Of a stretch of DNA of 58,061 bases, positions 16,602 through 58,061 are shown in pieces (the first letter of the stretch is position 1; each line of letters begins with the position of its first letter). The position numbers were made by a program, and so were the translations under genes. This DNA is from a virus (lineage: Duplodnaviria; Caudoviricetes): positions 1-58,061 of IMG/VR virus record IMGVR_UViG_3300032232_000240. One strand, written 5' to 3'. Below the pieces are notes generated by a model. That model saw only the letters and a list, made by a program, of their open reading frames with translations, was not told the DNA's origin and made no database searches.

Positions 16602-18188
16602 CTAATATCCAAATGTGGCATCTGCAATTTTCATTCCAGAATGACTAGAAGCTAAAGGATCATAGTCCCACAAACTACTTCTAGGTCTACTCATAATTCC
16701 ATAACGTAATGCATCATACAAATGATCTTCAGCATGCGTATCAATATCTTCTGGATTCTTTTTATCTAACGGAAGTATTGGTAATTGTGCAATAATATTT
16801 GTGCAATTACTTGTTATAACCATTCGCGGTTCTTCTGTAAACGGATCAAGCTGCAAACGTCTGTGTATCTCATTCTTTCCACTAACTCTACTACCAGCAC
16901 TTCTATCAGACGGCCGCCATCTACAACCCTCTAATATCATTTGTTCTGCTAAAGAAGGTCCAGTGTCCCCTCTTTTATGCCAACAACTGCTATCTAATAC
17001 ACCATATCTAATAGTACCGTCGTTTTCTTCTGCTCTCAATACCATATGGGCAAGGTCTTTTGCCAATACTTTTCTGACATATAACTCTCTATATACCACA
17101 AGTTGTTCAGAAGGGGACACGGCAAACCACACAACAGCACTGAAACTCCCGTAACCATAATCGCACGAACGAAACTTTGTCCAATTTTTAGGTATGTCGA
17201 AAGGGGATACAACATGTATTTGCCTATTAAATTCAGGAAATGCCGCTCCTTCAGCAACATCCCAATTACCTTCTAGTAATTGTTTTCTTTGATATTCTGG
17301 AAGAGACAACAACATTGTTTCATAATCACCGCTCTCAGCCAAGTAAGGATTATCAATCAACATTGCAGGTATAAACCGACGCTTAAACAGCGGCAATCCT
17401 TCTTTTGAATGTCCAACAGGGTATTGTAGTGTTGACCCACTTTCAATATCTGTTGCCCAAAAGGATTTACCAGCCGGTGCTGGATCAATAAACATCTTTT
17501 TAACCCATGAATGGCCGGGACCACCGGGGTTAGTTGTTGCTCGCATGAAAATGGGCAAATCACTAGCGGGAGTACGCAAGCGAGAACGCATGTAATTCCA
17601 TGCAAACGGAGTAGACCACTGCGTTAATTCATCAAAACCAATCCAGCTAAACGCCAATCCCTGATATCGAAGTACATCCTCGTCTCTATCTAGATATGAC
17701 ATCCACAATCTTGCTCCAGAAGGAGCTTGCCACTGCATCTTTCTTTCACTCCACTTAATACCGGGGTATATTTGTGGATACATTTCTTGGCTTTTCCAGA
17801 TTAGTTCTCTAAGTTCCTCTGTTGTGTGGCGTAAGAGAAGACCAGAAAACTGAGGGTGGCCCAAATAACGTAAGGGATCAGCCAACATTGCATACGATTT
17901 ACCGCCTCCTGCCGCACCGCCATATAACACTTCTCTTTCATTAGCTGCCAAGAATGATGTTTGTGGTCCTGCATTGGGCTTGAATATAACATTTTGTGTT
18001 TGCTCTTGCTCTTTAATGCTCTCTGGTTGGATCGAAACTATTGATGGCTTTCCAGATGTCTGATTCAAAGAACTCTGGGGGCTTTGTGCCGATTCTTTCT
18101 TCGTATTGTTCCGCTTTCTGGAGGGCTTTTTGATATTTCCGGGCAATGTTGCGGTACGTTGTAGACTTTCTTTTGTGGGATTGCTCAC
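16602..18188 (-). CDS. terL: Terminase large subunit (start uncertain)
   Basis: Walker A YGGAAGGGKS, Walker B IGFDE, ATTNPGG coupling motif, nuclease DYGY and EDHLYDALRY. Confidence 0.95.
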   Translation of the reverse strand: MSNPTKESLQRTATLPGNIKKPSRKRNNTKKESAQSPQSSLNQTSGKPSIVSIQPESIKEQEQTQNVIFKPNAGPQTSFLAANEREVLYGGAAGGGKSYAMLADPLRYLGHPQFSGLLLRHTTEELRELIWKSQEMYPQIYPGIKWSERKMQWQAPSGARLWMSYLDRDEDVLRYQGLAFSWIGFDELTQWSTPFAWNYMRSRLRTPASDLPIFMRATTNPGGPGHSWVKKMFIDPAPAGKSFWATDIESGSTLQYPVGHSKEGLPLFKRRFIPAMLIDNPYLAESGDYETMLLSLPEYQRKQLLEGNWDVAEGAAFPEFNRQIHVVSPFDIPKNWTKFRSCDYGYGSFSAVVWFAVSPSEQLVVYRELYVRKVLAKDLAHMVLRAEENDGTIRYGVLDSSCWHKRGDTGPSLAEQMILEGCRWRPSDRSAGSRVSGKNEIHRRLQLDPFTEEPRMVITSNCTNIIAQLPILPLDKKNPEDIDTHAEDHLYDALRYGIMSRPRSSLWDYDPLASSHSGMKIADATFGY

Positions 18189-19361: not shown

Positions 19362-20615
19362 TTACCTACTAATTTCTTCCCAATCCATCGACCCATAAAT
19401 AGGTTGACCAGAAGATCCTCCAGCCACTACCAAAGCAAGTTCATATGGAGTAGAAGTAAAATAATTTCTTTCTAGTTGAAATGAAAACAAAGCTTCTTTT
19501 AAAATATCTACAGATGATGTTGATTGATTACTACTGGAAAAATACCCACTAGCCAATACTCTACCAGAAGTAGTAAGTCCAGTACCAGTTATATTATATT
19601 CTACACTGCTATTAGCTCCAGCACTAACCCATGTACCACCAGTTGTGGCTGGGCTGCTTTGTACTTGCCAATTGTAATTATTATTACTGCCTCCACCCAT
19701 AATACTAATTGCTGTAAGAATAATAATAGCATCAAGCCTAGTTGATTTAAGACGTAAGCTTACAACAGGAAGAAAAGCATTACTAGCTAACGTACTTCTA
19801 GAAGTTGTTATAGGAGTACCAATAGCTTGTTGAAGTCCTCTAAGTTCGTAGCCACCTTCAGAAATAACAGTGGAACAAACTTGCTTTAATGTGCTGCTAC
19901 TTGCTGTAGTACCAATGTTGGTCATTTCATAACGAAGAGGCAACGAAGCAGTGGTAATGTATGTTGTAGTTGTAAGATTGGCATGGTGAAAACTATGCGC
20001 TGGAACAAATACTCCATCAATAACAAATCCCATTCTAACAGTGCCTAAACCCAGCCATTCAATATCAGCATATAAAATTTGAGCTTTAGACAGGTCTAAT
20101 GTAATTTTAGAAGGACCAGTACCATCAAGTTTGTCTTGATTCCAATCTGCTTGCGCTACTCTGGTATTTACAACAGAGCTAGTAACAATGCTTCTTTCTA
20201 CAAGATAGATGTTGCTACTTTCTCTTTCTAAATAAAAACCATTATCATTACCAAAATATCCCGCTCTTTGTCTTAGGTTTGTTTTAGCAGCCCCCATAAC
20301 AAATGTGTTCATATTGAGTAAACTTTTTCCGGGCTGATAAGCAAATACCCGAACAGTTTCTCTTATGATTTGATCACCACTAGCTGTACCAACAGAAAGA
20401 TTTACAAGCCCTTCATTTACTGAAAAAGAAGAACTAGCCGTTCCTGTAATACTTTCAACCCATAGTCCGTTATCTGCGTATCTATGGGATGAATCAAATA
20501 GAGTAAAAGCTTCTGAAATTCTAAGCCTTCCAAAAGCATCGCTGCTAGTGGAAGGGAGCTTTACATTTACAGCATTGGTGGCGCTACTGCCTAACTCAGG
20601 ATATACAGTAATCAT
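19362..20615 (-). CDS. Beta-sandwich virion-associated protein
   Basis: 417 aa; DAFGRLRIS, YQPGKS, WLGLGTVRMGF motifs recalled from phage structural proteins. Confidence 0.6.
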   Translation of the reverse strand: MITVYPELGSSATNAVNVKLPSTSSDAFGRLRISEAFTLFDSSHRYADNGLWVESITGTASSSFSVNEGLVNLSVGTASGDQIIRETVRVFAYQPGKSLLNMNTFVMGAAKTNLRQRAGYFGNDNGFYLERESSNIYLVERSIVTSSVVNTRVAQADWNQDKLDGTGPSKITLDLSKAQILYADIEWLGLGTVRMGFVIDGVFVPAHSFHHANLTTTTYITTASLPLRYEMTNIGTTASSSTLKQVCSTVISEGGYELRGLQQAIGTPITTSRSTLASNAFLPVVSLRLKSTRLDAIIILTAISIMGGGSNNNYNWQVQSSPATTGGTWVSAGANSSVEYNITGTGLTTSGRVLASGYFSSSNQSTSSVDILKEALFSFQLERNYFTSTPYELALVVAGGSSGQPIYGSMDWEEISR

Positions 20616-22031: not shown

Positions 22032-22304
22032 CTATACATTCTTTCCTAAATAGACATGTCTTTGTTCTTTCCAGCCTTCCATTCGCATGGCTTCTTCTAT
22101 AACATCTAAAGGAAAGAAATAGCCACTCTTACTTTCCAGTGCAGCTCTAACAAAATAAACATCACTATGCGGTAGATGTATTTTTGTTTCTTTTCCTTCA
22201 TGCAATAGTTTATATGCTTCTGAAACAACAGAATATGGAAAAACAAAAGCTTCTCCTGTTTGTTCTACTTCTTTTCTTGTTCTGAATATTTTTTGTTGTT
22301 CCAT
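22032..22304 (-). CDS. Hypothetical protein, first gene of the late arm
   Basis: 90 aa ORF collinear with the late arm. Confidence 0.6.
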   Translation of the reverse strand: MEQQKIFRTRKEVEQTGEAFVFPYSVVSEAYKLLHEGKETKIHLPHSDVYFVRAALESKSGYFFPLDVIEEAMRMEGWKEQRHVYLGKNV

Positions 22305-22497
22305 TATAATGATCTATGTAAGTTGCTGTCAGCGTAACATCAGCATATAAAAATGTATAAAATAATTATTCAATTTTACAGAATGATATTGTCTACATCA
22401 ACTATGTAGATGTTATAGTAAAAAGAAAGGGCTGTGTATTAAAGACTTTCCAGAATGTCTCATTTATACAACAAAGATAATAGATATGTGTTTTTCA

Positions 22498-22516
22498 AAT
22501 AAGAATCGTTCTCATC
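22498..22516. promoter_or_regulatory. Fur-box-like operator
   Basis: AATAAGAATCGTTCTCATC, 16/19 to the 9-1-9 form AATGAGAATCATTCTCATT. Confidence 0.55.
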
Positions 22517-22521
22517 TTCAT

Positions 22522-22537
22522 TGTTTCATGTGAAACA
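22522..22537. promoter_or_regulatory. parS-like centromere site
   Basis: TGTTTCATGTGAAACA, 15/16 to the chromosomal parS consensus TGTTTCACGTGAAACA; intergenic. Confidence 0.7.
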
Positions 22538-22661
22538 TTTTGTTGTGTTGCCGACCATATACACACTAGCCAAAATGCAAAGTGGTTAACAGGTCAATTT
22601 TACCCTTCTGTGTGCTGTGCCATACACACTAACGCACCATCCCCCGGTGGCCCACGCAGGG

Positions 22662-22864
22662 TCGTACCAGACGCTATAACGACTCGTACCAGAATTAATA
22701 ACGACTGCTTATGCGCCCAATAACTATCATCGAGAAAAGTATTATTATTGGCGGCATAACGATTTTAGCGGTAATAACTATAATGCCGAAAATAACTATA
22801 ATGAAACTGATAACGACGCAATAGATTATTGTAATAAAATTGTCATAATAGGGAATATAACGAT
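22662..22864 (+). repeat. Phased array of ATAAC(G/T)A short repeats
   Basis: Copies at 22676, 22698, 22720, 22756, 22774, 22792, 22810, 22857; TCGTACCAGA at 22662 and 22684. Confidence 0.75.
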
Positions 22865-23112
22865 GTGATTACAAAGCCTAAAGGTGGTATATAAAATAGT
22901 CATTATAAAAAGCATAAGTAACTATCACGCAATTGCCTAGAAAACAATCTATAAAAAGCATATCCCCCATTGCATAGTGGTCAATAAAGATTCAATGAAG
23001 CCAAACCACCCAATAACATAAACCTTATGCCGATATCGCATAAAACTATCACGACAAAGCCATAAAGATTATTTAAAGCTTTTATGTAATAAAGATTTAA
23101 TGCATTAAAGAA

Positions 23113-23132
23113 TACTGTAAAGATATACAGTA
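23113..23132. promoter_or_regulatory. LexA SOS box (beta/gammaproteobacterial type)
   Basis: TACTGT-AAAGATAT-ACAGTA matches CTGT-N8-ACAG with TA flanks and an AT-rich spacer. Confidence 0.72.
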
Positions 23133-23140
23133 AAAACGAC

Positions 23141-23229
23141 AATCTACCGGCAACCGGCAAAATCTACCGGCAAAGTCAGCGACCGGCAAGCTTTGCCGCT
23201 ATCGTCACGGCATCGATTGCCGCTATCGT
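23141..23229. repeat. ACCGGCAA x4 followed by TTGCCGCTATCGT x2 (CGGCAA core inverted)
   Basis: Copies at 23146, 23153, 23166, 23182; inverted cores at 23193 and 23217. Confidence 0.75.
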
Positions 23230-23284
23230 TCTATAAAGTAACATCATTCCACAGTCGAATGCGGGATACAGCGCATTGTAGGGG

Positions 23285-23301
23285 TTGGCACGTTACCTGC
23301 T
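23285..23301 (+). promoter_or_regulatory. sigma54 (RpoN) -24/-12 promoter facing the early arm
   Basis: TTGGCACGTTACCTGCT vs consensus YTGGCACGNNNNTTGCW, exact GG-N10-GC spacing. Confidence 0.65.
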
Positions 23302-23312
23302 ATAGAGTACCT

Positions 23313-23571
23313 GCCCCTAGGGGCTTACCGCTTTGACCTAGTGACTAGTGATTACTAGATAGTGCGAGACTCGATAGAATTAGATTGCCGCATTAATAAT
23401 GCTAGCGTTTAATTCCGGTAGATTAATACCGTTAGGATTAATCGGAAAGTAAAAACATTTACTTTTCATTGTTGCGATGACATAGAGCGAGCTAATAGAC
23501 TGTTACGCTATGTCATTTTATCCAATGCATGTTATCAATTAGCATGCATTGGCGGTGTTTATAGGCTACCG
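23313..23571 (+). ncRNA. Candidate structured leader/ncRNA made of ~8 consecutive hairpins
   Basis: Inverted repeats at 23313-24, 23345-58, 23390-402, 23416-31, 23445-66, 23477-516, 23522-52, 23553-71. Confidence 0.4.
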
Positions 23572-23577
23572 TAAAAT
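23549..23577 (+). promoter_or_regulatory. Possible sigma70 promoter for the first early gene
   Basis: TTGGCG-N17-TAAAAT. Confidence 0.4.
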
Positions 23578-23602
23578 GCTTATAATAAAGTCGGGGAATT
23601 AC

Positions 23603-23764
23603 ATGTTCAATGAAATTGTTCTTCTTAAAGCTTTGGCTAAAACAATTGACAATCCTTCAATTGTTCGCAAAATTGATTTTCTTTACAATGAATATTGCGA
23701 TGTCGGCGATTTAAAACCGACAAGCAAATTAATTCTCGCAAACATCATCAAGCTTTTTCACTAA
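23603..23764 (+). CDS. Small early hypothetical protein
   Basis: ATG after GGGGA RBS; 53 aa. Confidence 0.55.
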   Translation: MFNEIVLLKALAKTIDNPSIVRKIDFLYNEYCDVGDLKPTSKLILANIIKLFH

Positions 23765-30471: not shown

Positions 30472-30671
30472 ATCAACTTAAAGACAATAAAGGAAACACT
30501 TGGAATCCTTATGTATTAGGCTATGAATCAGAAGGAATGCATTTTGGTATTGTTTTTTATGCAATATCAAAAGAGCATGCCTCATTGGTTTTGGAAGACA
30601 TCAAAGACACAGGACAATTAGTGGGTGAAATTAAAAAGCGCCCAATCGAAGATGATAGTTCTGCGTTATGA
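30468..30671 (+). CDS. Hypothetical protein
   Basis: Coupled to both neighbours; YAISKEHA. Confidence 0.6.
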   Translation: MNQLKDNKGNTWNPYVLGYESEGMHFGIVFYAISKEHASLVLEDIKDTGQLVGEIKKRPIEDDSSAL

Positions 30672-31540
30672 AAGTGTCTAGACTTATTACTAATTACCTG
30701 CTTTCTGATACATATAAAAATCTTTCTCCTAAGACTCAAAATGATTATGTATTTTATTTATCTAAATGGTATTCACCAGAACTTTTAGATAGAGCAATAT
30801 CCACAATCAAAACATCTGAGTGGCAAAGTCTTTATGATGATTTGTGTATAAACACACCATCATTGGCAATACACACTTTGGCTACATGGAGAACGGTTTT
30901 TAAATATGCTGTTGGTAAAGGCTATTTAAAAACTAACACTTTGAGAGAAGTCGTTAGGAAGCCCTACAAGCGTCGATCAGTATGTTGGACTAGGGAAGAT
31001 ATTAGCAAGTTCTTAAACGTCGCCTATAGCCGGTTTGAGGGCCGTTCTATAGGGCTTATGGTACAGATGGCTCATGAGTGGGGACAAAGAGTTGGGGATT
31101 TGAGAGTTTTGCAATGGGATAATTATTGTCTACAAACAGGAGTGGTTACAATACCCAAAACAAAAAGAAAAGAAGCAACAACCATACCATCAAGTAAGCA
31201 ATTGATGGAAATGCTTAGTAAACAATATGAAGACTACGGATGGCAAAAATATGTAGTACCATCTGCTAAATCTGACAAAGAAGGAGGTCTATTACCTTAC
31301 ACAGCCGTTCGCATCTCTCAAATAGCAAATAAAATAAAAGAAGCTGCTGGTGTTGCGCCAGAACTACAGATTTCAGATTTAAAGCGCACTGCCTTGACAG
31401 AGATGCTAGAGTACGGAATCCCGCTACACAATATCATGTCAATAACAGGACATTCTAGTCCTTACGCATTAAATCCTTATATTAAACATTCATTAGCATT
31501 GTCATCAGAAGCAATGCGAATGAGAAAATTAATTGAATAA
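30668..31540 (+). CDS. Tyrosine recombinase/integrase
   Basis: GQRVGD (R), KTK (K), DLKRT (HxxR variant), TGH, PY (catalytic Tyr). Confidence 0.85.
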   Translation: MKVSRLITNYLLSDTYKNLSPKTQNDYVFYLSKWYSPELLDRAISTIKTSEWQSLYDDLCINTPSLAIHTLATWRTVFKYAVGKGYLKTNTLREVVRKPYKRRSVCWTREDISKFLNVAYSRFEGRSIGLMVQMAHEWGQRVGDLRVLQWDNYCLQTGVVTIPKTKRKEATTIPSSKQLMEMLSKQYEDYGWQKYVVPSAKSDKEGGLLPYTAVRISQIANKIKEAAGVAPELQISDLKRTALTEMLEYGIPLHNIMSITGHSSPYALNPYIKHSLALSSEAMRMRKLIE

Positions 31541-36786: not shown

Positions 36787-36984
36787 ATGATTACTATTAC
36801 TACTGAATTGGAAATTGCTATTCCTAAGTCTGAAATTCCTGCTGGCTTGCTTGCAGATGAAGAAGTGTTACATGAAGCTATAGTGGAGGCTTTGTCACAA
36901 GCTTTTGCTGGTTTGGGAGCAACCGACGATGATGTAGTAATTACATATCTTGACATCGAAGGTTTGCATGACGAAGAAGACTAG
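36787..36984 (+). CDS. Acidic hypothetical protein
   Basis: AAGGA RBS; 65 aa, very D/E-rich. Confidence 0.6.
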   Translation: MITITTELEIAIPKSEIPAGLLADEEVLHEAIVEALSQAFAGLGATDDDVVITYLDIEGLHDEED

Positions 36985-37348
36985 AAATAGTGGTCAATGG
37001 ACTGAAGCAAGGTGGAGAAGCTTTATTGTCTCTGCCTTGCGAATGGCATCAAGACGCTGGCCTGTAAAGTTTGATGTATTGAAGAAGGCTAGTGTTGGAA
37101 GGAAAATTAATCCAAAAACAGGAAAGCTTGCACTACATTATCAATGCGCTAAATGTACAAAAACATTTGTTGGATTGGACGTACAAGTAGACCATATCAT
37201 CCCTGTTGTAGGTAAAGAAGGATTCGTTAGTTGGGACGAATATGTAGAGCGTATGTTCTGTGAAGCTAATAACTTCCAGATTTTATGTAAGCCGTGTCAT
37301 AAATTAAAAACTGATACGGAAAAACTTAGGAGAAAGAAAAATGGTTGA
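36968..37348 (+). CDS. HNH-type endonuclease
   Basis: CAKC, VDHIIP, NFQILCKPCHKLKT. Confidence 0.85.
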   Translation: MTKKTRNSGQWTEARWRSFIVSALRMASRRWPVKFDVLKKASVGRKINPKTGKLALHYQCAKCTKTFVGLDVQVDHIIPVVGKEGFVSWDEYVERMFCEANNFQILCKPCHKLKTDTEKLRRKKNG

Positions 37349-43858: not shown

Positions 43859-46800
43859 TTATGGTTTAGAAACCAGTCCTCCTTTATTAAACTTCTTTGT
43901 TAGACTCAACAACGCATCAGTTTTTCTTTTATCGTCCATAGACATATTAAGAATAGTGCCAAGTTCTCTCAAATTCTCAGCCCTTTCATGAGAACCAATA
44001 CTATCCAACATTGTTGTTGACTTATTGATCATATCATAAAATCTATTTAGATTAACAGAAACATTGTAAGCATATTGCTGACCCATGCCCCCATAAGGAG
44101 AAACTAGGTCTGAATATTTCATTGCAGTGTTTAGATATTTTCTAAGATCGGCATACGCTCTGTTTGCAGTTATTCTAACCTGCTTAGATGATTTTGGATT
44201 TAACAAAACAGTTTCATAATCCCCAAAACGTCTAGTAAGATTATTTAAATCTTCATCTCTCTTTTGAAACTTCTTTACAACATCCTTCATTTCTGTAGGA
44301 TTGTAATTCATTGCTGCACCTGCTGCCCTTTGTTCAGAAGGTGCGCCCAATCCTTTTAGTTTTTGTGCCTGTACAATAGCGTCCTCATGTTCTTTCCACG
44401 TTGTTGCTGGAAGAGACATATGGCGTACAGTAATTGGATCTCCAGTAATTGTTCTTGCAGCAGTATTTAAATCTCTATTACCATACTGCCTTGCAGACAT
44501 ATTAACTCTTAAGAATTCATAGTCAGCATATGGAATTTGTACATTCAAATAATTCTCTGGGGTTTGCCCACCAAACCTTGTTTGAGCCATGTTCAAATTC
44601 AAGTCTTTAGTAAATGACGGTGCGCCAATACCTAATTCAGAATGAGAAGACTCCACTTGTATATTGTTAGGATCATTAAATCCAAATGTTGCTCTTGATT
44701 GTCTAGGGCTATAAGAACCATGATACAGAGTCATTGGCGGTCTGTCTTTATATTTTTCTCTTAGACCGTCTAGCTTGTTTTGAAGTTTGTCTGCCATCTT
44801 GCCAACTTCAACTGCATTCTCAGAAGTAATCTCAAGTTCTTTTTTATATTTTGCTCTGTATTCGCCCTGCAAAACACCCAAGACAACATCATCCACTTTC
44901 CAAGTGTCTGTTTTCTTTTCTCTTTGATTAAAAGCTTCTCGTAATGATGGGAAGTAACCCTCTCTATATTCTTGAATAAAAGACAAACCAGCTTTTCTAT
45001 CTACAGTTCTATACGAATCACCTTTTAATGCATCATTAGCTTCTTTCTTTGCAATCTCTAAAGCTGCAATATTTGTTGGCTCAGTAGTTTCCCACCAATT
45101 AGCACTGTTACGGGGTTCTCTTGGCGTTACTGCTGGAGACTCTTTTAGCTTTTTACTTACTTCAGACATTATAGATGTGTCTGGTCTTTGTGCCAAAGCT
45201 TGTTTCTTTTTACCTTCAGCAATAGCTTTGTCTACAAAACTTTGAATTTGTTGTTCTGTTTCTGGTGACATCAAGCCTTTAGTTTCTTTCTTTTTTGGAA
45301 GAGTAGTGGTTTCATTAAAACTATTTGAAAATTGTTCATAGTCTTTTGCTGCTTGCTCTGAGGGGAAAGCTAGTTGTTCAATTGTCTTACCGTTCTTATC
45401 CTTTACTGTACCAATCCACATGCCATTTGAAGGCTTTTGTTTCAAGCTTGAAAATGCAAATGGAGCAGAAGTTTCTATTGTTGGTTTTTCTACTGCTTTG
45501 CTTTCCTCCAAAGTCTTTTGCATTTTAGATAACAAAGACTCTCCACCTTCTTCAGCAACAGCACCTGCTCCTTTCTTAATAAAAGAACTAGAAGGAGGAG
45601 ATAACATATCAGTAAGGTTTCTAACAAGACCGCCCGGAGCAAATCCCGGTATCTTCTTAATAGAATTAGAGATAGCCAATGCTGACATATAGTCTTTAGA
45701 TTCTTCTAAATCTTTTCCTGTATATTTTTTATACATGGCTGCTGTTTCGCGCTTAACTTCAACAGGCAATGCAGAGTATTTATTTTCAAATATTCTAGAC
45801 TGTCTTCCCTCTTGTTGAGCAGTTGCCATATCTCTATTAGTTGCAATTTCTTTAGCAGTCTTTGACGCAAAGCTCAGAGTGTTCTGAAGCATAATCTTCT
45901 TCATATCATCACTACCTTCTTGGTAGAATGAAGTATTGCTAATTGTATTAAACAATTTTCCAGCAAGAGGAGCCATTTCTTTCTTGGCAACAGCGTCTAC
46001 AACTTTGTCTCCTGTGGTAGAAAACACTTTAGTAGTTGGGATTTTTAATCTAGTAATTTCCTTTTCCAATTCATTTGGAAATTGCTTGATGGCAACACCA
46101 GTTGCTGTTTTCAAAAGACCAGCATCATTAGGAGACTGCTCTTCTCTTGTTGCAGTTTGGAAGACAGGAAGTTCTTGTTTAAGGATTGGTGTACGTTTCT
46201 GCAATTGTTGTTTAGCAGAAGTCAACACCCCTTCTTCTCCCGGCTTAACTTGATAAGCATCACGGGGTACATTCTCATCTCTATCAATAGCACCAATAAT
46301 ATCACTAACTTGTTGCAGAGGAACAAGACCCCTGCCTAAGTATTCTCCTAACCATTCACCAAAGAATGTAGCAACTTTATTACTAGACGCTCCTTCTCCT
46401 GTTTGAGCATTGCTAGAAGCTTCAGCAAACTTATCACCCAACAAAGCATAAGTACCAGCAGGTTGTTTAAATCCGGTAAGAGCTTCAATCAATTCTTTTG
46501 ATTTAAATTGATCAGTTTTTCCACTTTCCATTTTTGCTAAATAATCACCAATGGCAAGAAATGGGCCAGCAGGGAAAAACACTCTAGCATCTACTAAAGA
46601 ACCGTCTGGATTTTTAACGTCATACCAATTAGTGTCTTGGTTGTCTTTTCTATATTTATATGCAGCATAAATAGCAGCAATACCCACAGTGCTTTTAGAA
46701 ACATTCTCAAGTCCTTGAGCAAGGTAGGCTTCGCCTCCTCTTTCACCTTTAGCAAGTAGGGTTGTTCCTTTAGCAACATCAACAGAACCATTAACAAGAT

Positions 46801-49159
46801 TTAGTGGGCTGTGTTTGTATGTCCACTCCATAGCGTTTGCCATGAAACGTGGGAAAGGAATAACAGTGGAACCAATCGGTCCAAGCTCTTCTACAAACTT
46901 TACAGCGTGGTGCATTGGTCCTTTAGTTGGCATCTTACTAAAGGTTGCTTTAAGAGACTCATCAACAGCATTCTTAAGAACATCAACAGGTACTTGTTTA
47001 CCTTGAGCAATAACATCATAAATGTTAGTGCCTAGTCCTGCTCTTTCTAATTGTTTTTCTACAGAAGAAACAAATATGGCTTGTCTAAAGAATGCATCTT
47101 GGGCTACGTTAAGTGTATTTAAGAGTCGAACAGGCTTTGATAGTTCCCCTTCTGATGCTTCACCTGTAGTTCTTTTTATCATTGATAAAAGCTTTGGCGC
47201 GTCTTTCAACAATACGTCTGTCATTTCAGATGACAAATCTCCACGCCCCAAATAGAAAGACGTTCTAACTGCGTCATTCCAAACACCATTAAGACCACCA
47301 GTAAAACTTCCAGTAATTGGTTGTCCAGATAACACTTCACCAGCAGTGGTTCCAACTCTATAAAGAGAAGATTCCAATGCTTCTTTAGCTGCACCAAAAG
47401 TAACAGTGGTGGCTGTAGAGAATGCGTTGCGTACAGTGGTTGATAGCTGCGATACCATCAAACCTTTTAGTTCTTTGTCTAGACGTTTAGCACCGTCCCA
47501 TAAGAAACCAAATCCGCTAGTCAATACATTATTCCTACCATACATTCTATCAATTGATTTAGCAGCTTCTGGATCAATTTGCTTCATTGAGTTTTCAAGA
47601 CGCTTAACCACAGACAAAGCCTGTAGTCCTCTACCCATGTCGCTAACACTAGAGCCATACATCTTTGATATTTGTTCTGATGTAAGACCAGTTTCTTCCA
47701 TTGCTCGCAAGAAATCTTTAACTACAAAGTCAGATCCTTTGGCAGCATTTTCTAGAATGGTGGGATCAATTGTGTCAAGTTTGTCTAGAGTGTCTCTAAC
47801 AGCCCTATTGATGGCTTGATCAGTTACGTCATCAGGTTTAAATTCTGGAGCAAGTTTCCAAATGTTTTGAGCAAACTTAGGAATATTTACATTCAAATAT
47901 TCTCTAAGCTGCATTTCTTTTAGTTGGTCTGCTCTGCTACCTTTATTAAGGAGAGTGCGTCCATCAAATATATCAAACTGATTTTCTGCTTCAATCATGT
48001 TTATGATATATTTATCAAGCTCTGGATCAGATGCTTTCTGTGGTTTTACTGGAGGAGTTGGGACAGTAGCCCGTTTCTCATAATCAGCTTTTATGCTGTC
48101 GTACAAACCTTGATATTTTGTTTTATCTGCATCACTAAGAGTGGCAAAATATTTGTCAAGCTCAGCAATTTGGCCTTTTGATCTAGTAGCTAATACATCA
48201 CCCAAAGCAGACTTAGTTCCCCTAGCAGCAGCACCAGCTTTAGCTGCTCCCGGCAAACCAGCAAATAACAATTCAGTAGTGCCGCCAACAACTGCTGCTT
48301 TAGCTACTTCTTTTCCGCTAACACCAGATTGAATTTTAGCCTGTAATGCTGCTGTTTCTTTATCAAAATCTGCTTTAAATCTTGCTTGATCTTCTGCTGG
48401 TAAAGAAGCAAAAGTTTTTTGTAATTGATCTAGTTCACCTTTACTTCCTTCAATATCAATCTTTTGGCCCAACACATTTTGTGTTGCAGCACCAGCAGCG
48501 CCAACAGCAGGAACAGCAGCAATTTTACCAATGTTGCTAACAAGAGCTTTCTTTATTCCTTCTTCAGCAACACCTTTAGTAAGTGCCCTACCAGCAATAG
48601 CACCAGTACCAGCAGTTGCTACTGTAGTGGGGGAAGAAACAATACCTTTAAAATAATCAAAGTATGGGCCAATACCTTCTTGTCCACCTTTCTCAGTAAA
48701 ACCAGCAGTCTTTTCCCACAAGTCATAAGCAGCTTTTGCTTTAACTTTGTCTTCTGGTTTTGCGTTGTTTAGATAAGAAACTTCTTGTGTAGCATTAATT
48801 TCATTACTACCCATCATTCTCATGTGTGTAGCAAATCGCTTTACAAAGTCTTCTTGTGACTCTCCCTTTTGCATGACATCTTTACCAAACCTACCAACAG
48901 CATAGTTGTAGACGGTATTAAAATTGTCAGGCTTTTCGTATAGGTCTTTAAATGGAGACTTGGTTTGCTTTGATTCTGTTATTGTTGGTGCTGTGGTAAA
49001 GCCAGCATATTTTTGACGAAGCTTGTCTTGTTCCGACATTGCCATGTCAGTTTGGCTGGGTTCAATTTTACCCCCATATTGTTTAACTAAATCATCAATA
49101 CTAGAGGTAGAGCTAGAAACAGTGCCGCCATATTGTTTGGCAAGCTCTTCATAATCCAT
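43859..49159 (-). CDS. Large internal virion protein (1766 aa) with a candidate C-terminal ADP-ribosyltransferase domain
   Basis: Largest ORF, last of the ejection-protein block; PFPRFMAN core; C-terminal LYHGS...GIGAPSFT...EHE. Confidence 0.75.
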   Translation of the reverse strand: MDYEELAKQYGGTVSSSTSSIDDLVKQYGGKIEPSQTDMAMSEQDKLRQKYAGFTTAPTITESKQTKSPFKDLYEKPDNFNTVYNYAVGRFGKDVMQKGESQEDFVKRFATHMRMMGSNEINATQEVSYLNNAKPEDKVKAKAAYDLWEKTAGFTEKGGQEGIGPYFDYFKGIVSSPTTVATAGTGAIAGRALTKGVAEEGIKKALVSNIGKIAAVPAVGAAGAATQNVLGQKIDIEGSKGELDQLQKTFASLPAEDQARFKADFDKETAALQAKIQSGVSGKEVAKAAVVGGTTELLFAGLPGAAKAGAAARGTKSALGDVLATRSKGQIAELDKYFATLSDADKTKYQGLYDSIKADYEKRATVPTPPVKPQKASDPELDKYIINMIEAENQFDIFDGRTLLNKGSRADQLKEMQLREYLNVNIPKFAQNIWKLAPEFKPDDVTDQAINRAVRDTLDKLDTIDPTILENAAKGSDFVVKDFLRAMEETGLTSEQISKMYGSSVSDMGRGLQALSVVKRLENSMKQIDPEAAKSIDRMYGRNNVLTSGFGFLWDGAKRLDKELKGLMVSQLSTTVRNAFSTATTVTFGAAKEALESSLYRVGTTAGEVLSGQPITGSFTGGLNGVWNDAVRTSFYLGRGDLSSEMTDVLLKDAPKLLSMIKRTTGEASEGELSKPVRLLNTLNVAQDAFFRQAIFVSSVEKQLERAGLGTNIYDVIAQGKQVPVDVLKNAVDESLKATFSKMPTKGPMHHAVKFVEELGPIGSTVIPFPRFMANAMEWTYKHSPLNLVNGSVDVAKGTTLLAKGERGGEAYLAQGLENVSKSTVGIAAIYAAYKYRKDNQDTNWYDVKNPDGSLVDARVFFPAGPFLAIGDYLAKMESGKTDQFKSKELIEALTGFKQPAGTYALLGDKFAEASSNAQTGEGASSNKVATFFGEWLGEYLGRGLVPLQQVSDIIGAIDRDENVPRDAYQVKPGEEGVLTSAKQQLQKRTPILKQELPVFQTATREEQSPNDAGLLKTATGVAIKQFPNELEKEITRLKIPTTKVFSTTGDKVVDAVAKKEMAPLAGKLFNTISNTSFYQEGSDDMKKIMLQNTLSFASKTAKEIATNRDMATAQQEGRQSRIFENKYSALPVEVKRETAAMYKKYTGKDLEESKDYMSALAISNSIKKIPGFAPGGLVRNLTDMLSPPSSSFIKKGAGAVAEEGGESLLSKMQKTLEESKAVEKPTIETSAPFAFSSLKQKPSNGMWIGTVKDKNGKTIEQLAFPSEQAAKDYEQFSNSFNETTTLPKKKETKGLMSPETEQQIQSFVDKAIAEGKKKQALAQRPDTSIMSEVSKKLKESPAVTPREPRNSANWWETTEPTNIAALEIAKKEANDALKGDSYRTVDRKAGLSFIQEYREGYFPSLREAFNQREKKTDTWKVDDVVLGVLQGEYRAKYKKELEITSENAVEVGKMADKLQNKLDGLREKYKDRPPMTLYHGSYSPRQSRATFGFNDPNNIQVESSHSELGIGAPSFTKDLNLNMAQTRFGGQTPENYLNVQIPYADYEFLRVNMSARQYGNRDLNTAARTITGDPITVRHMSLPATTWKEHEDAIVQAQKLKGLGAPSEQRAAGAAMNYNPTEMKDVVKKFQKRDEDLNNLTRRFGDYETVLLNPKSSKQVRITANRAYADLRKYLNTAMKYSDLVSPYGGMGQQYAYNVSVNLNRFYDMINKSTTMLDSIGSHERAENLRELGTILNMSMDDKRKTDALLSLTKKFNKGGLVSKP

Positions 49160-50799
49160 TATTTAATTCCTGCTTTTGTTTTAAATTCCTCCGCTGCTTT
49201 TGCATTGGGGAATGTTGCTGTTTGACCATTAGGCAGTCTCACTGTTACCGGAGCATTAACAGGTGTTGGAGCCGCTGGAACAGCCGCTGGAGGGGCTGTA
49301 GGAGCCGCTACAGGAGGCATTGTCGGTCTTGCCTGTGGGGTAGCGGCTGCTGGAGGCTGCGAAGGCGTTGTAGGGCCTGTTGTAGGAAGTGGCGTAGTTG
49401 CTGGTGTCATCGCCCTATTTACAACAGCTTTTCCATTGGCATCAAAATCAACATTATTAGCTAGTAATAGTTGCCGTTCTGCGTTACCAACTGGCACTCC
49501 ATCTTTTGTAAGTATTTGAATAAGTTTTTGTTGAGTGGCAATAACGGCTTGTTGAAGCAATTCTGGTCTGTCCAAGTCTTTAATACCAATATTACCATCA
49601 GCAGTGGTATAAAGATTGGTAGATGGAATGTATTGTTCGTAAATAACACGCCTTACGTTAGCAACAAGTGTACCTAGACCAATTTGTCTATCTTTTTGCT
49701 CGTCTGATAGTCCACTGGCGTCTCTCATTTTTTTAGTTAAGCCGCCTCTAATTTTTATTTCGCTATCAATATCTTGCAACATCTTTCGTTTTTCTGAGCT
49801 GTCTGGCTGTTTGTCTAATTCCACAGCTTTGGTTTGTAAACGTGCCATTGCTTTTTCTGATGTCTCTGATTTTCCAAACATAGTTTCAGCAATATATTCC
49901 GTTTCCATAATATTAGTAAGCTTATCTGTAGCTTTTTTAACAGCTTCTTGACTACCTGTTTGTCTTGCATGAGCAAGACCAGCAATAGCATTGCTTTTCA
50001 TGGTTGTGAATGAATCAGCACCCGGATCTACAGAAACTATTGCTTCTTTTAATCTAGCTGCTTTTTGTTCATTTATAGCAAGACGCTGCTCTTGATCAGA
50101 AAAGTCCCCTGTTGTTATTTCATATCTTTCTTTAGCCAAAGCAGCCGCAACATCTTTTAGGTCCATTGGTCTAAACGCACCAAACTCAAATTTAGATTTA
50201 GAACCAGAGATAGTGGTTTTTGGAGTGATGCCGCCAGAAGCTCCCATAAGGGATTCCATAGGAACACCAGATGCTTTAGCAGCACCTTCAAATGTTGTTT
50301 TATATCCCTTTTCCCTAGCTCCTGCATAAAGGCCACTAACTGGTTCTTGTTGCTTTAAAGTACCTTCAGCAACAGAAGTTGCTGTTGGCATTTTAAATTC
50401 GCCTTTAATAAAATCTTCAACTTTACCAGTGAATTCACCAGCAGCAGTTTTATCAACTTTGCTAAAAAGCTTTTGCCATTCCACTTTGCTTGGATCAAAG
50501 TCTTGCTTTGTCATAGCTCTGCTAAATTCAGAAACAAAAGCAGGACTAGAAATAGCTTCTTTTAATTCGCCTTCAGTAACATTATATCCATAATTATTAG
50601 AAAACTCTCTAAGCTTAGTAGCTGTATCAATGTACAGGTTTTGTCTTTCGTCGTAGTCTTTCTTTGAAGTTTTGTAATTGTCATAGAGAGTGCTGAAAGC
50701 ATACTCTCCAAATTTGCTTCCTAGTTTTTCTTCTTCTGCACTCTTGGTTGCATAACCAGAAGCCATTCCAGCAAGAAGGGAAAAAGCTGCTGCACCCAT
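49159..50799 (-). CDS. Internal virion/ejection protein
   Basis: Hydrophobic Gly/Ala N-terminus, helical body, Pro/Thr linker; synteny. Confidence 0.6.
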   Translation of the reverse strand: MGAAAFSLLAGMASGYATKSAEEEKLGSKFGEYAFSTLYDNYKTSKKDYDERQNLYIDTATKLREFSNNYGYNVTEGELKEAISSPAFVSEFSRAMTKQDFDPSKVEWQKLFSKVDKTAAGEFTGKVEDFIKGEFKMPTATSVAEGTLKQQEPVSGLYAGAREKGYKTTFEGAAKASGVPMESLMGASGGITPKTTISGSKSKFEFGAFRPMDLKDVAAALAKERYEITTGDFSDQEQRLAINEQKAARLKEAIVSVDPGADSFTTMKSNAIAGLAHARQTGSQEAVKKATDKLTNIMETEYIAETMFGKSETSEKAMARLQTKAVELDKQPDSSEKRKMLQDIDSEIKIRGGLTKKMRDASGLSDEQKDRQIGLGTLVANVRRVIYEQYIPSTNLYTTADGNIGIKDLDRPELLQQAVIATQQKLIQILTKDGVPVGNAERQLLLANNVDFDANGKAVVNRAMTPATTPLPTTGPTTPSQPPAAATPQARPTMPPVAAPTAPPAAVPAAPTPVNAPVTVRLPNGQTATFPNAKAAEEFKTKAGIK

Positions 50800-51488: not shown

Positions 51489-54400
51489 TTAGGTAGTAAA
51501 GATTGATACAATCTTGTCAAAAGCTTTACCAGCCGCTCCTGATGTAACAAAAGCACCTCCAATAATACTTAAAGCTGTGGCTGTTTGAGCATTTGAAGAA
51601 GCAGTTGTAGATGCATTTCCAGTAATTGTTGTTTTTAAAATATCTGTAGCTCTATCCAATTCATTCTCACCAGACTTATAAGACATCGTTAACAAATCTC
51701 TATATGTCTGACTTGTTTGAGCATACTCAGCAGAAGACAAGTCCGTAGCATTTTTAGCATTAACAGCATTAGCTGCATTAACAGCCGCTGTATTTGCTGT
51801 AGAAACTTCAGCAATTATTTTGCTATTAGCAATTTCTACTTGCGTAGACATATTAGCATTAAACTCTTCTCTTGCGTTAGCTTGTTGAGTATTAAATTTA
51901 GAAACATCAGCAGCAACAGCTTGATTAGAAATAGCCACTTTAGTCTGCTCACCAGCATTAAACTGATTAGTAGCTGCTGTAAGCTGAGCATTCACCTTAT
52001 CTGCTTCTAGTTTATTAGTAGCGTTAGTAATTGATGCTGCATTTTGAGCAGCGGTATCGCTAAGAATAGCTTGAGAAATCTCTTGCATTTTAATAGCTTC
52101 CATCTGCTGCTTGTTGTCCAAGTTTTTCATATCCATTGCAAGGAATGATTGAGCATTAACAACAGCAGCTTGCTGTCTTGCATCAAGATTTTTCATATCC
52201 ATTGCAGCATATGTAGCAGCGTTTGCAAGAACAGTGGCTTGCTTATTAGACAAATCAGCTATATTCATTTGCTGAATAAAACCTGCATTAGCAATAGCGT
52301 TTTGTTGCTCTGCTGTAAAGTTTATATTAGCAATTTCAGAAATCTTAGCAGCGTTAGTAATATTTACTTGCTGTTTATTACTAAGTTCTTGTCCTGAAAT
52401 AGCAGCATCAATTTGAGCATTAGCCAACGCTGTTGCTTGTTTATTAGACAAGTTAGTGACATTCATTGTCATGCTGTTTGTACTATTAAACAACCTAGTT
52501 TGTTGTTCATTAGTAAGCTCAATCTTTCTTTCTTCAAGTTTTGCAGAAGCATTAAACAATGCTGTTTGCTGTTGGTTATCCAACACCTTTCCTTTCATAG
52601 CCGCAGAAGCAGCAGCGTCTTGCATGAAAGCTGCTTGCTTATTGCTGGCATCAAACTTTGCAGACTCAAAAGATTGTGTACTCTTAAGCATAGCCAACTG
52701 CTGATCATTGGTAAGCTCTTGACCAGCAATAGCTGCTCTAACTTGCAAATTAGCAATAGCTGTTTGTTGACTATTAGAAAGGTTTGCCAAATCAATCTGC
52801 ATGTTCTCAGCAGACTTTGCAAGAGTAGCCTGTTGCTTATTAGTTAGGTTGATGTTATTAACTTCTGCATATTTAGCAGCGTTGGTAATTGCTGTTTGAG
52901 AAGCAACATCCAAATTCTTAAGTTGGAAGCCAGCCTTAAGCTGAGCATTAGCAAGAACAACAGCCTGAGTATTGGAAAGATTTGACATCTGCAATGCAAA
53001 AGCATTGTTGCTGTTTGTAATAGAAGCTTGTTGTTTATTGTCTAGATTTTTTAGTTCAATGTTTTGAGCAGCAGCAGCGTTAGCCAAAGCAACAGCTTGT
53101 CTATTGTTCAAATTAGCCAGACCCATTGCAGCATATGTCTCAGCATCTTTAGCTGCAATAGGAGTAGCACTTTCCATTGCTGCTTGAAGGATAGCAGCAC
53201 CAGCCATAGAACTATTACCTAACCCACGTTTAGACATAGCAGCATTAGCTGCTCTAATGGCTCCAGCAGCCCATGCAGGAGTGCCGTCATTAAACTGTGA
53301 CATCATCTTTGCAAGCTGCCCTTGAACAGTGCTGGCAGCATCTACTACCCCTGTTTGTGCTTCAGCAGCTAAAGCTTGACTAAAACTTCCTGTTTGTGCA
53401 ATAGCCAACGCAGCTTTATCAAGAGTCTCCATTGTTGCTGCTGCTTTAATAGCATCTTCATCAACAGCAATTTGAAGCTTTTGTTTTTCAATGTCTACAA
53501 GTTCTTGATCTGTAATTGCTCTTGTTTCACCAGTGACAGTAGAAACTCTTGTTGTCGCTGCTTCTTTTGCTGCTAATTTTGCTTTATCAGCCTCAAGCAT
53601 TTTAGCAGCATCTTCTGCTTTAAATGCTCCAATAGTGGCAATTTGAGCAGAGTCTAGTGTGTAACTTGTTTGTGCTGTAGCAGTAGGGGTTGGACCAGTA
53701 AATGTAGCGGCTTTAGCAATGTCTGCTGAAGTTAATGCTCCTTCTTGTGCTGTTGCATAAGCAATAGGACCAATGTCTTTTCTAGTAGCAGCAGCAGCTA
53801 TTTCACCAGATTCTAAAGCCCTTGCGTCTTGAGTTGCTACTATTGCCGCTGGTGGTGCTGAAACTAAAGCAGCAATAGCGGCTGAAGAAAGTGTTCCTTG
53901 TGCTGCTGATACTTTAGCCAGTTCAGAAATCTGACCTGTTTGTGCAGCAAACTTATTTTGTGCTGATTGCAAAGCACCTAATGATTGTGTAGCTGTCACT
54001 ACGTCTCTAGAAACAGCAGCAGGGGCAGCAGCAGTGGTAGCAGTAGCTATTGTAGGTACACTAGCAGTGGCAACAGCAGCAGGAGCTTTTTGTACAGTTG
54101 CTCCTATGTCTTTTGTATCAGTTTGAGCAGCATTAATAATAGGAGCGCCAGCAATTTTAGGAGCGCCGGTCATAACATCAAAACTACTAGCAGCACCACT
54201 AGTTAATGTCCCAGCAGCATTTGTTGTCAATGCTCTTAGTTGTTCAGTAGTTAATTTTCCAGTAGTAGCTGTTCCTCCTGTTGTTCCACCAGTAGTTGTG
54301 GTAGTAGAAGGAGGAGTAGTAGAAGGAGTATTAACACCAGCGGTTTTAGCTTCAGCAATGCTTGAATAACGTGTACCATCTGGCCCATAGACGTATGATT

Positions 54401-54608
54401 TAGTCATGTCTACATCACCACCAGCAACAAACTTCTTTACCATCCCGCCTTTACGCATCTTTGGACCAAGAACAGAAACAACTTTTCCATACTGTTGCTG
54501 AGCAGCAGGATTTGACTCAATGAATTTGTCAAACATATTCATTGGGCCTTCATATCCCAATTTACGAGCAACAATTTCTTTTTGAGTTTCGGTAAAGTTT
54601 TGTTCCAT
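51489..54608 (-). CDS. Internal virion protein with 22-residue Asn/Gln coiled-coil repeats (candidate DNA ejection tube)
   Basis: 16 tandem NLxNxQ-anchored 22-mers; PAWAAGA..RGLGNSSMA motif; hydrophobic C-terminus. Confidence 0.7.
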   Translation of the reverse strand: MEQNFTETQKEIVARKLGYEGPMNMFDKFIESNPAAQQQYGKVVSVLGPKMRKGGMVKKFVAGGDVDMTKSYVYGPDGTRYSSIAEAKTAGVNTPSTTPPSTTTTTGGTTGGTATTGKLTTEQLRALTTNAAGTLTSGAASSFDVMTGAPKIAGAPIINAAQTDTKDIGATVQKAPAAVATASVPTIATATTAAAPAAVSRDVVTATQSLGALQSAQNKFAAQTGQISELAKVSAAQGTLSSAAIAALVSAPPAAIVATQDARALESGEIAAAATRKDIGPIAYATAQEGALTSADIAKAATFTGPTPTATAQTSYTLDSAQIATIGAFKAEDAAKMLEADKAKLAAKEAATTRVSTVTGETRAITDQELVDIEKQKLQIAVDEDAIKAAATMETLDKAALAIAQTGSFSQALAAEAQTGVVDAASTVQGQLAKMMSQFNDGTPAWAAGAIRAANAAMSKRGLGNSSMAGAAILQAAMESATPIAAKDAETYAAMGLANLNNRQAVALANAAAAQNIELKNLDNKQQASITNSNNAFALQMSNLSNTQAVVLANAQLKAGFQLKNLDVASQTAITNAAKYAEVNNINLTNKQQATLAKSAENMQIDLANLSNSQQTAIANLQVRAAIAGQELTNDQQLAMLKSTQSFESAKFDASNKQAAFMQDAAASAAMKGKVLDNQQQTALFNASAKLEERKIELTNEQQTRLFNSTNSMTMNVTNLSNKQATALANAQIDAAISGQELSNKQQVNITNAAKISEIANINFTAEQQNAIANAGFIQQMNIADLSNKQATVLANAATYAAMDMKNLDARQQAAVVNAQSFLAMDMKNLDNKQQMEAIKMQEISQAILSDTAAQNAASITNATNKLEADKVNAQLTAATNQFNAGEQTKVAISNQAVAADVSKFNTQQANAREEFNANMSTQVEIANSKIIAEVSTANTAAVNAANAVNAKNATDLSSAEYAQTSQTYRDLLTMSYKSGENELDRATDILKTTITGNASTTASSNAQTATALSIIGGAFVTSGAAGKAFDKIVSIFTT

Positions 54609-56889: not shown

Positions 56890-58061
56890 TTAAACTCCTT
56901 TAAGTTGAGATTTGAGGCTCGCAACCTCGGCTGAAAGTTCTTGAATGGCTTTGATGAGGGGACTGATGAACATCTCGCGGCTAATCGCTTGGATGGTGTC
57001 TTCGTTTCCTGCATCCCAACCGTTAAATGTCAAGCACCCTTCCGCGTCCAGCGCTGCTTTGACTTCCTGCGCGATCAGACCATGGATGACCGTTGTCGTG
57101 TTGCGCTCGTTGGTTTCTTTGTAGTACGGCAAGGACGGGTCTATGTCTGGGGATGCTTTCCAGTTGAACGTGACCGGGCGTAAACGGTTGATAAACGACA
57201 AACCAAGGGAATCGTCTTTAACATTAGTTTTTAGACGAGCATCAGACGTTTGAGTCCAAGTTGCATTAACGGTAAACGCATTGTAAATTTTTCCAGAAGC
57301 AGAGCCAATTGTTACATTGGAATCTGCTTGTCCTGTAAGGTTATAACCTAAGACAACTTGATTGGTCGCACTTACAGAACTTGTTCTAGCAAAACCACCA
57401 ACAATTACGTTGTTTACTCCAGTCGACAATAGAACGGTGTCATAACCGGCTTGACAACCAACCAAAGTGTTTCCAGCACCGGTAACAGAATACCCAGCTT
57501 GATAACCCAAAGCAGTGTTGTGGCTAGCGGTGGTGTTGGAACGAAGTGCTTGATTGCCAAATGCGGTGTTAAACGAACCGGTAGTGTTGGAATACATTGC
57601 CGAAGTATTGTTCGGTGTTCCAACCCCGCCAATAGCTGTGTTTCCTTGTCCTGTTGTGTTGCTATACAAAGCACGATAGCCCATAGCAGTATTGCTTTGT
57701 GAACTACCGCCAGTTGTATTTGAATACCCAGCCTGATAACCTAACGCATCAATGTAACCAGTCGTATTACTATACGCTGCCTGATAACCAACAGCATTGT
57801 TGCTTTCACCGGTGGTGTTGCTAAAAAGCGCCTGAGTACCAACAGCAATGTTATTGGAGCCGGTGGTATTAGAATACAACGCGCTATACGCACCTATTGC
57901 CACATTTAATGAGCCGGTGGTGTTTAGCTGTAAACAATTTTTACCAACTGCAACGTTGGTTCCGGTTGTGTTTGTATATAACGCTTGAACACCAACCGCA
58001 GTGCTTTCCGATCCGGTATTGGAGTAGAGTGATTGGTAACCAACAGCGGTTATGTTAGTGC
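56890..58061 (-). CDS. Tail fibre paralog with S74-type chaperone; 5'-truncated at the window end
   Basis: Frame open from 58059 (TNITAVGYQSLYSN...); YSNTTG repeats; TSDARLKTNV, HGLIAQEV. Confidence 0.88.
   Translation of the reverse strand, partial: TNITAVGYQSLYSNTGSESTAVGVQALYTNTTGTNVAVGKNCLQLNTTGSLNVAIGAYSALYSNTTGSNNIAVGTQALFSNTTGESNNAVGYQAAYSNTTGYIDALGYQAGYSNTTGGSSQSNTAMGYRALYSNTTGQGNTAIGGVGTPNNTSAMYSNTTGSFNTAFGNQALRSNTTASHNTALGYQAGYSVTGAGNTLVGCQAGYDTVLLSTGVNNVIVGGFARTSSVSATNQVVLGYNLTGQADSNVTIGSASGKIYNAFTVNATWTQTSDARLKTNVKDDSLGLSFINRLRPVTFNWKASPDIDPSLPYYKETNERNTTTVIHGLIAQEVKAALDAEGCLTFNGWDAGNEDTIQAISREMFISPLIKAIQELSAEVASLKSQLKGV

Follow-up and report, generated by a model that had tools for sequence, protein, structure and literature searches.

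The gene-free junction of an HMO-2011-type podophage as a candidate hub of replication and early control

We analysed the virus record IMGVR_UViG_3300032232_000240, a single 58,061-base contig of an HMO-2011-type podophage (the window, by which we mean this whole stretch of DNA), and in particular its gene-free junction at positions 22305-23602, which separates the virion and packaging genes, read leftward, from the early and replication genes, read rightward. With somewhat better than even confidence, we read this junction as a conserved cis-acting hub for replication and early control that is partly wired to host factors. Its two most conserved and most solid items are an element of about 75 nucleotides (nt), here called X, and a structured RNA candidate of about 250 nt. 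Both were outside the list of sites in an earlier annotation of this DNA (the original prediction), which had described the junction as a switchboard of binding sites for host regulators. The sequences with their conservation, the covariation and the motif statistics are observations; all binding proteins, the origin function, the use of sigma54 and the formation of the structure in RNA are inferred.

HMO-2011-type phages rank with the most abundant viruses of aquatic habitats, yet how they are regulated is not known to have been described. No earlier description of this junction was found in the literature, supplementary files aside, and the main text of a survey of HMO-2011-type phages (PMC9038755) contains neither the word promoter nor the word intergenic. 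Genes left of 22304 run leftward and genes right of 23603 run rightward, and the minimum of the cumulative GC skew coincides with the junction. The largest open reading frame (ORF) inside it has 59 amino acids (aa), in agreement with the earlier claim that it is non-coding. The junction is flanked by the following genes:

22032-22304, minus strand: left flank, the 90-aa gene left90.
From 23603, plus strand: right flank, a 53-aa ORF, which is the first early ORF.
From 23779, plus strand: right flank, the GP88/PF17338 gene.

Relatives were searched in IMG/VR with the 17-mer pattern CCCCCRGTGGCCCACGC, which matched 46 stretches. Homology over about 75 nt, the extent of element X, was found in 43 of them; the other three (L013, L014 and L021) were likely chance matches in GC-rich coding DNA and were dropped. 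For the family comparison, 43 distinct junction segments of relatives were set against 368 kb of flanking DNA from the same loci. Single motifs, as defined by consensus strings for LexA, parS, sigma54 and Fur, were compared with 1000 Markov-1 simulations of the 1298-nt junction. Gene families were assigned by scanning 46 distinct ORFs of the window against Pfam, PHROGs or both.

Element X and the adjoining repeats

Element X was first seen when the window was aligned with two close relatives and then with MW202701, as a segment far better conserved than its surroundings. It opens an ordered series of features in the left half of the junction:

22583-22657, plus strand: element X, a putative cis element of about 75 nt conserved across the family.
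22662-22863, plus strand: iteron-like array of two 22-nt units TCGTACCAGA-N5-ATAACGAC, followed by six more ATAAC(G/T)A.
22984-23129, no strand assigned: AT-rich tract with three ATAAAGATT-headed repeats, a candidate unwinding region.

The element consists of a short palindrome, an A/T tract, TTCTGTGTG, TATAYAYA and then CCCCCGGTGGCCCACGC, and 36 distinct copies of it align well. Its orientation is constant. In 42 of 49 loci the start of left90, encoded on the opposite strand, lies 300-900 nt to the left. GP88 is found to the right in 22 of the 49, the remaining loci being cut by the locus ends; the distance to GP88 is 0.7-1.5 kb in 21 of these 22 loci and 3.3 kb in L052. In HMO-2011 itself, the left half of X is retained at the corresponding position. 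Blastn of the X copy from L010 gave no match among phage records, short C-rich matches being below the reach of BLAST, and blastn of the whole junction against 50,697 phage records gave none either. As a family-wide cis marker, X offers a handle for locating the origin or the packaging site in these phages.

Intact copies of X were also present in two Rhodobacterales genome contigs, one of 254 kb and one of 98 kb. The 8-kb loci around them share no protein with the window, and they therefore belong to other phage types. A role of X as attP core was rejected on the ground that X is intact in both contigs, if these are prophages. In the related phage CRP-3, a tRNA-Met gene is the integration site (PMC6918029). 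We also considered left90 as a DNA binder of X. It is a core gene across the family beside X, with an invariant SDV motif, and its AlphaFold model is a confident four-helix fold (predicted local distance difference test score 85.7). The idea was dropped on finding neither a fold match (best E 2.2) nor a sequence match in PDB.

The short direct repeats that follow X on its right are particular to each lineage. L011 is 92% identical to the window left of X and then 60% and 43% identical right of it, and the corresponding recombination switch in L020 lies about 260 nt further right; X and the repeats mark recombination break-points. In the window, eight of the genome's 14 ATAACKA sites fall within 188 nt (22676-22863), all on the plus strand and with spacings of 22, 22, 36, 18, 18, 18 and 47 nt. 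The phased repeats that had been predicted at 22662-22864 were hereby upheld, most of them being 18-22 nt apart. GC content reaches its minimum of 18-22% at 23040-23129. Contigs from three sequencing runs (X1, X2 and X15) stop at 23045-23053 and the relatives give no cover at 23116-23420, which indicates no more than variation of this stretch between strains.

Clustered same-strand repeats next to a very AT-rich tract characterize iteron-type origins such as lambda ori, P1 oriR and RK2 oriV, and the window has both. The relatives share a further trait with such origins, namely exact DnaA boxes (TTATCCACA): 11 sites were found in seven of the 43 junctions, against 0.66 expected. All of them lie 345-470 nt right of X, and they are tenfold denser here than in the flanks. 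The enrichment of exact DnaA boxes in these other lineages makes the use of host factors at the junction plausible. The window differs from the known iteron origins in that it has neither a recognised initiator gene nor an exact DnaA box, in that X stands before its repeats, and in that its replication genes are T7-like (primase-helicase and PolA), a set that is not known to need iterons. On these grounds the proposal that X, the lineage-specific iterons and then the AT-rich tract would together form a replication origin appears to us evenly balanced.

A structured RNA candidate and the elements around it

The right half of the junction holds the second conserved item, together with promoter-like elements on either side of it:

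23146, 23166 and 23182 (within 23141-23229), no strand assigned: direct repeats ACCGGCAA.
23184-23198, no strand assigned: palindrome CGGCAAGCTTTGCCG.
23208-23222, no strand assigned: palindrome CGGCATCGATTGCCG.
23286-23301, plus strand: sigma54-type -24/-12 element TGGCACGTTACCTGCT, matching 11 of the 12 specified positions of TGGCACG-N4-TTGCW.
23308-23554, plus strand: candidate structured RNA, about 250 nt long and made up of at least five helices.
23522-23562, plus strand: terminator-like hairpin of 13 pairs with the tail CGGTGTTTAT, the last helix of the RNA.
23549-23586, plus strand: candidate early promoters of the sigma70 type, TTGGCG-17-TAAAAT and TTTATA-17-TATAAT, shortly before the ORF at 23603.

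RNAalifold analysis of eight sequences gave 48 pairs, 24 of them with compensatory changes, and a hairpin train noted earlier is hereby confirmed by covariation. Paired cells made up 95.3% of the alignment at these positions as compared to 83.2% in column shuffles, with none of 500 shuffles reaching the observed value, and 27-40% when the partners were slid; shuffle controls of this kind overstate the support when, as here, the sequences are related. We infer that 23308-23554 folds as RNA. The terminator-like stem also covaries in L038 and L062. No Rfam family matched the plus strand of 23300-23560 at E values up to 10, and the tRNA was the one match in the entire window at gathering scores. 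When 40 sources (418,785 bases) were searched with a covariance model of the RNA core, only the window was found, which indicates that the RNA is specific to this freshwater subclade.

Both TTGGCGGTGTT and the -10 region of the early promoter are kept in relatives. The 3' arm of the terminator-like hairpin overlaps the -35 TTGGCG of this promoter, and the RNA, through its transcription or its folding, could hence gate early-gene expression. Cis-acting structured leader RNAs are known from the HK022 put antiterminator and the ColE1 RNA II primer. The candidate of the window resembles these in its position, directly downstream of a candidate promoter in an early or origin region; it differs in having no sequence or Rfam similarity to them, and it is larger than put.

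The sigma54-type element has one mismatch, and 14 of 1000 simulations contained a site as good. Its GG and GC are exactly 10 nt apart, and the exact core TGGCAC-N6-TGC occurs nowhere else in the 58 kb. The GG/GC parts (TGGCA and TGCT) with exact spacing were found in all eight relatives that hold this part, with varying spacer and upstream flank, and a further copy lies about 200 nt upstream in L020, L038 and L043. As a motif, the sigma54 promoter earlier placed at 23285 is real. Outside the subclade, only L005 had a site at 11/12 (on the minus strand), and L026 and L039 had two and one, respectively, at 10/12; most of the wider family has no sigma54-type site and has classical TTGACA-type early promoters instead.

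Measured from the GG of this element, the two palindromes are centred about 96 and 72 nt upstream, a placement that makes them look like activator sites. They are of the CGGCA-N5-TGCCG form, and at least one such palindrome at 70-100 nt upstream was kept in all eight relatives holding this part. They could therefore serve as upstream activator sites of a sigma54-type promoter, which in turn would drive the rightward structured RNA. The CGGCAA cluster claimed for 23141-23229 was recovered, with six sites in 75 nt (23148-23222). The hexamer is also common elsewhere: CGGCAA/TTGCCG occurs 55 times genome-wide against 21.5 expected (reached in none of 100 shuffles), mostly inside genes. At the place of the window's ACCGGCAA repeats, L005 (MW202701, 4504-4659) has about 18 tandem copies of the 8-nt unit ACTACAGC, which has the same size and position and a different sequence.

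Use of a sigma54-like promoter is known from Pseudomonas phage YuA (PMC10914365). The similarity lies in a promoter of the -24/-12 type in a phage without an RNA polymerase gene of its own. The phages are otherwise unrelated, and the promoter of the window, which is predicted from sequence, would drive a structured non-coding RNA. If so, the junction would hold a structured RNA of no known family behind a promoter type that is rare for phages.

Sites resembling those of host regulators

The remaining sites of the junction are mostly palindromes, several of which had been assigned to host proteins:

22373-22401, minus strand: candidate sigma70 promoter of the leftward genes, TTGATG-17-TAAAAT (9/12 in a consensus scan).
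22444-22459, no strand assigned: operator-like near-palindrome GACTTTCCAGAATGTC, identical in six of seven subclade sequences and with two changes in L043.
22499-22515, no strand assigned: palindrome ATAAGAAT-CG-TTCTCAT (the earlier Fur-like box), kept in six of seven subclade sequences.
22522-22537, no strand assigned: parS-like site TGTTTCATGTGAAACA, with one mismatch to the consensus.
23113-23132, no strand assigned: LexA-type SOS box TACTGTAAAGATATACAGTA of the beta/gammaproteobacterial type, matching 18 of 20 positions.

The SOS box predicted at 23113 stood up well to the simulations, none of 1000 giving a site with as few as its two mismatches. It is identical in L003 and L018. In the family comparison the pattern CTGT-N8-ACAG was found at 14 sites in 12 of the 43 junction segments, as compared to 1.01 ± 0.96 in simulations (maximum 4 in 100), and its density was about tenfold higher in the junctions than in the flanks (0.215 against 0.022 per kb). 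These sites occur in at least four unrelated sequence contexts: the group of the window; one site common to seven GC-rich loci with diverged flanks (L010, L032, L036, L019, L033, L039 and L051); L047, with TACTGTACAGCTATACAGTA; and L040, where the site lies left of X. The alpha-type LexA motif GTTC-N7-GTTC was absent from the 43 segments, with 1.18 sites expected. The enrichment of the one motif and the absence of the other point to hosts with a LexA of the beta/gammaproteobacterial type and to selection for the box. An expectation attached to the original prediction, that the junctions of relatives would be enriched for host operators, was thereby borne out for LexA-type sites, and likewise for DnaA boxes.

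By itself and within the subclade, the 23113 box would say little about regulation by LexA; the family-wide pattern makes a stronger case, and host LexA likely acts at the junction, where the box would tie it to the host SOS response. By eye, L010, L032 and L036 have a TATAAA -10 inside the LexA-type box. In L019, L033, L039 and L051, convergent pairs of exact DnaA boxes were seen about 390-470 nt right of X, directly after the LexA-type box.

In phage GIL01 the host LexA serves as repressor (PMC4551915 and PMC6182141). The window is similar in having a consensus-like SOS box in its early control region, an integrase and no CI-like repressor that could be found. GIL01 differs in being a tectivirus of Gram-positive bacteria with boxes inside the promoter P1 and the co-factor gp7; the box of the window, predicted from sequence, overlaps no clear promoter and is missing in some close relatives. 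The presence of host LexA-type and DnaA sites in integrase-bearing phages with no recognisable repressor opens the debate on their temperate lifestyle to testing.

The parS-like site gave a mixed result. A site as good was seen in none of 1000 simulations and nowhere in the flanks, which upholds the predicted likeness to parS at 22522. Yet it was restricted to seven of the 43 junction segments, all of the window's subclade and at a constant offset from X, and it was absent in L004 and L018. Chromosomal parS is TGTTNCACGTGAAACA; the phage site shares 14 of its 16 positions as palindrome arms, and all five distinct variants have TG or CA (CATGTG or CACATG) in place of the central CG of CACGTG. 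No ParB gene was recognised in the phage. Binding of ParB to this site appears doubtful to us.

The Fur-like box that had been placed at 22498 proved to be at chance level. It matches 11 of 19 positions of the GATAATGATAATCATTATC-like 19-bp consensus. The best Fur-like site of the junction is elsewhere and has six mismatches, and 548 of 1000 simulations had one at least as good; the whole 58-kb genome has no Fur site with three or fewer mismatches. The site is real only as a palindrome of the subclade, with a variable centre, and is absent from L004. Further left, the -35 of the candidate leftward promoter overlaps the palindrome TCTACAT-N5-ATGTAGA (22392-22410), and a 29-nt block around this promoter is identical across nine viral and eight metagenome stretches. 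A sigma70-type leftward promoter would accordingly lie under overlapping palindromic operators.

Competing explanations and genome context

Several observations weigh against reading the junction as a hub of replication and early control that makes partial use of host factors. Among the 46 scanned ORFs no replication initiator family was matched, and neither an enhancer-binding protein nor a repressor gene was recognised. An exact DnaA box TTATNCACA is absent from the window, where the best match is 8/9. The SOS box at 23113 is carried by only three of the eight subclade members whose sequence covers this part, being absent in L004, L020, L038, L043 and L062, and no sigma70 site scoring at least 9/12 overlaps 23113-23132. 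The sigma54-type element overlaps TGCTATAGA; because its -12 part can in this way also be read as the extended -10 of a sigma70 promoter, we put the use of sigma54 there at about half. The set of eight sequences behind the RNA is partly mosaic. The reading also presupposes a host with rpoN and a LexA of the CTGT-N8-ACAG type. Finally, X could alternatively be a packaging site, as discussed below.

A more specific scheme can be drawn, in which a repressor-less temperate podophage would bring host signals together at its origin. A host enhancer-binding protein at CGGCA-N5-TGCCG would fire the sigma54 promoter and produce a new class of structured RNA; this RNA would prime or license replication from the X-iteron origin, or gate the overlapping sigma70 early promoter; and host LexA at 23113 would keep the module off until DNA damage occurs. 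All these steps taken together seem to us quite unlikely.

Of the other explanations, the one that survives best takes the palindromes and repeats as operators of the phage's own, as yet unrecognised, small regulators, the likeness to LexA, parS and sigma54 sites being coincidence or convergence. We regard this as possible, though clearly less probable than the hub. The junction has several different palindromes (at 22392, 22444, 22499, 22522, 23184 and 23208), and many of the small early ORFs have no known family in Pfam or PHROGs. In addition, the repeats differ by lineage and move in recombination blocks with the neighbouring junction DNA, as in L011, a behaviour easier to reconcile with binding proteins specific to the phage than with shared host proteins. 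The recurrence of CTGT-N8-ACAG in unrelated surroundings (L047 and L040 as compared to the window) is nevertheless hard to explain by a lineage-specific protein, and the exact GG/GC spacing of the sigma54-type element in eight of eight relatives also speaks against it.

According to the original prediction, the junction consists mainly of sites for host proteins (Fur, ParB, LexA and sigma54), by which a repressor-less phage leaves the choice between lysis and latency, and the positioning of its DNA, to the host. The premise on the gene content was correct: an integrase is present, and none of the 46 ORFs matched a ParB, LexA/CI, Fur, sigma-factor, enhancer-binding ATPase or RNA polymerase family. 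The scans against simulated controls, which had been proposed as a check, set the LexA-type, parS-like and sigma54-type matches apart from chance and failed for Fur. Besides these matches, the family-wide enrichment of LexA-type and DnaA boxes and the precedent of host LexA as the GIL01 repressor are in favour of the idea. Of the four assignments, LexA was sustained in part and sigma54 possibly, ParB found no support and Fur was wrong. The parS-like site never has a central CG, the SOS box is missing in five of eight subclade members, and X, the iterons and the RNA, which are the best-conserved parts, correspond to no host-factor motif. As an account of the whole junction we therefore consider this explanation unlikely.

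It is still less likely that X and its repeats are a pac or cos site or the boundary of a terminal repeat. Some pac and cos regions do have a single-copy conserved element with repeats after it, X is likewise single-copy, conserved and followed by repeats, and 12 fragment contigs end 200-1360 nt right of X. These ends are scattered, however, with no single place, and only one of 11 near-full-length contigs (at least 50 kb) with a homologous X ends near it. The suggestion that host proteins are coated or decoyed here at the genome ends thus found no support. Fixed terminal repeats were rejected as well, since the window ends have no overlap and the contig ends near X are scattered. For phage phiM6, whose TerL is 56% identical to that of the window, PhageTerm predicted headful packaging with pac about 0.6 kb upstream of the gene that precedes terL (PMC6256558). 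X lies about 4.4 kb from the terL start in the window, and no X-like sequence was seen in the first 620 nt of phiM6.

Very unlikely is the explanation that the hairpins work as DNA at the origin, as cruciforms or in single strands, and not in RNA: the hairpin region adjoins the origin-like features and the minus strand folds too (42 pairs, 21 compensatory), but the plus strand gives the better fold (-42.6 kcal/mol and 48 pairs, against -35.4 kcal/mol and 42 pairs), has G-U at 11 of 48 pair positions that would be A-C mismatches on the other strand, and has a promoter upstream and a terminator-like hairpin at the end.

The window as a whole fits the HMO-2011 type. TerL (16602-18188) is 73-75% identical to TerL of HMO-2011 and Roseobacter phage CRP-1, and gp65 of Puniceispirillum phage HMO-2011 shares 67% identity with the virion protein encoded at 19362-20615 (minus strand). 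Other genes encode a portal, a major capsid protein, a T7-like primase-helicase, PolA, a ribonucleotide reductase, ThyX, one tRNA-Arg and a tyrosine integrase of 290 aa (30668-31540). The 18 listed public runs that contain window sequence are available as contigs only, and those with a label are freshwater or lake metagenomes, which is a hint on habitat only.

Some minor observations were made outside the junction. The virion protein at 19362-20615 is also 65-67% identical to proteins of T4-like cyanomyoviruses (S-RIM8, S-RIM12 and S-RIM50), which looks like sharing of this gene between podoviruses and myoviruses. The start (1-1392) and end (56890-58061) of the contig are both inside tail-fibre-like genes, as 3'-open and 5'-open ORFs on the minus strand with similar, non-overlapping sequences; the assembly probably broke within repeated fibre domains, and the circle may not be closed. 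Three large proteins on the minus strand (43859-49159, 49159-50799 and 51489-54608; 1766, 546 and 1039 aa) had no Pfam or PHROG match and may be internal virion or ejection proteins. The replication module includes a small ORF for an HNH endonuclease at 36950-37348.

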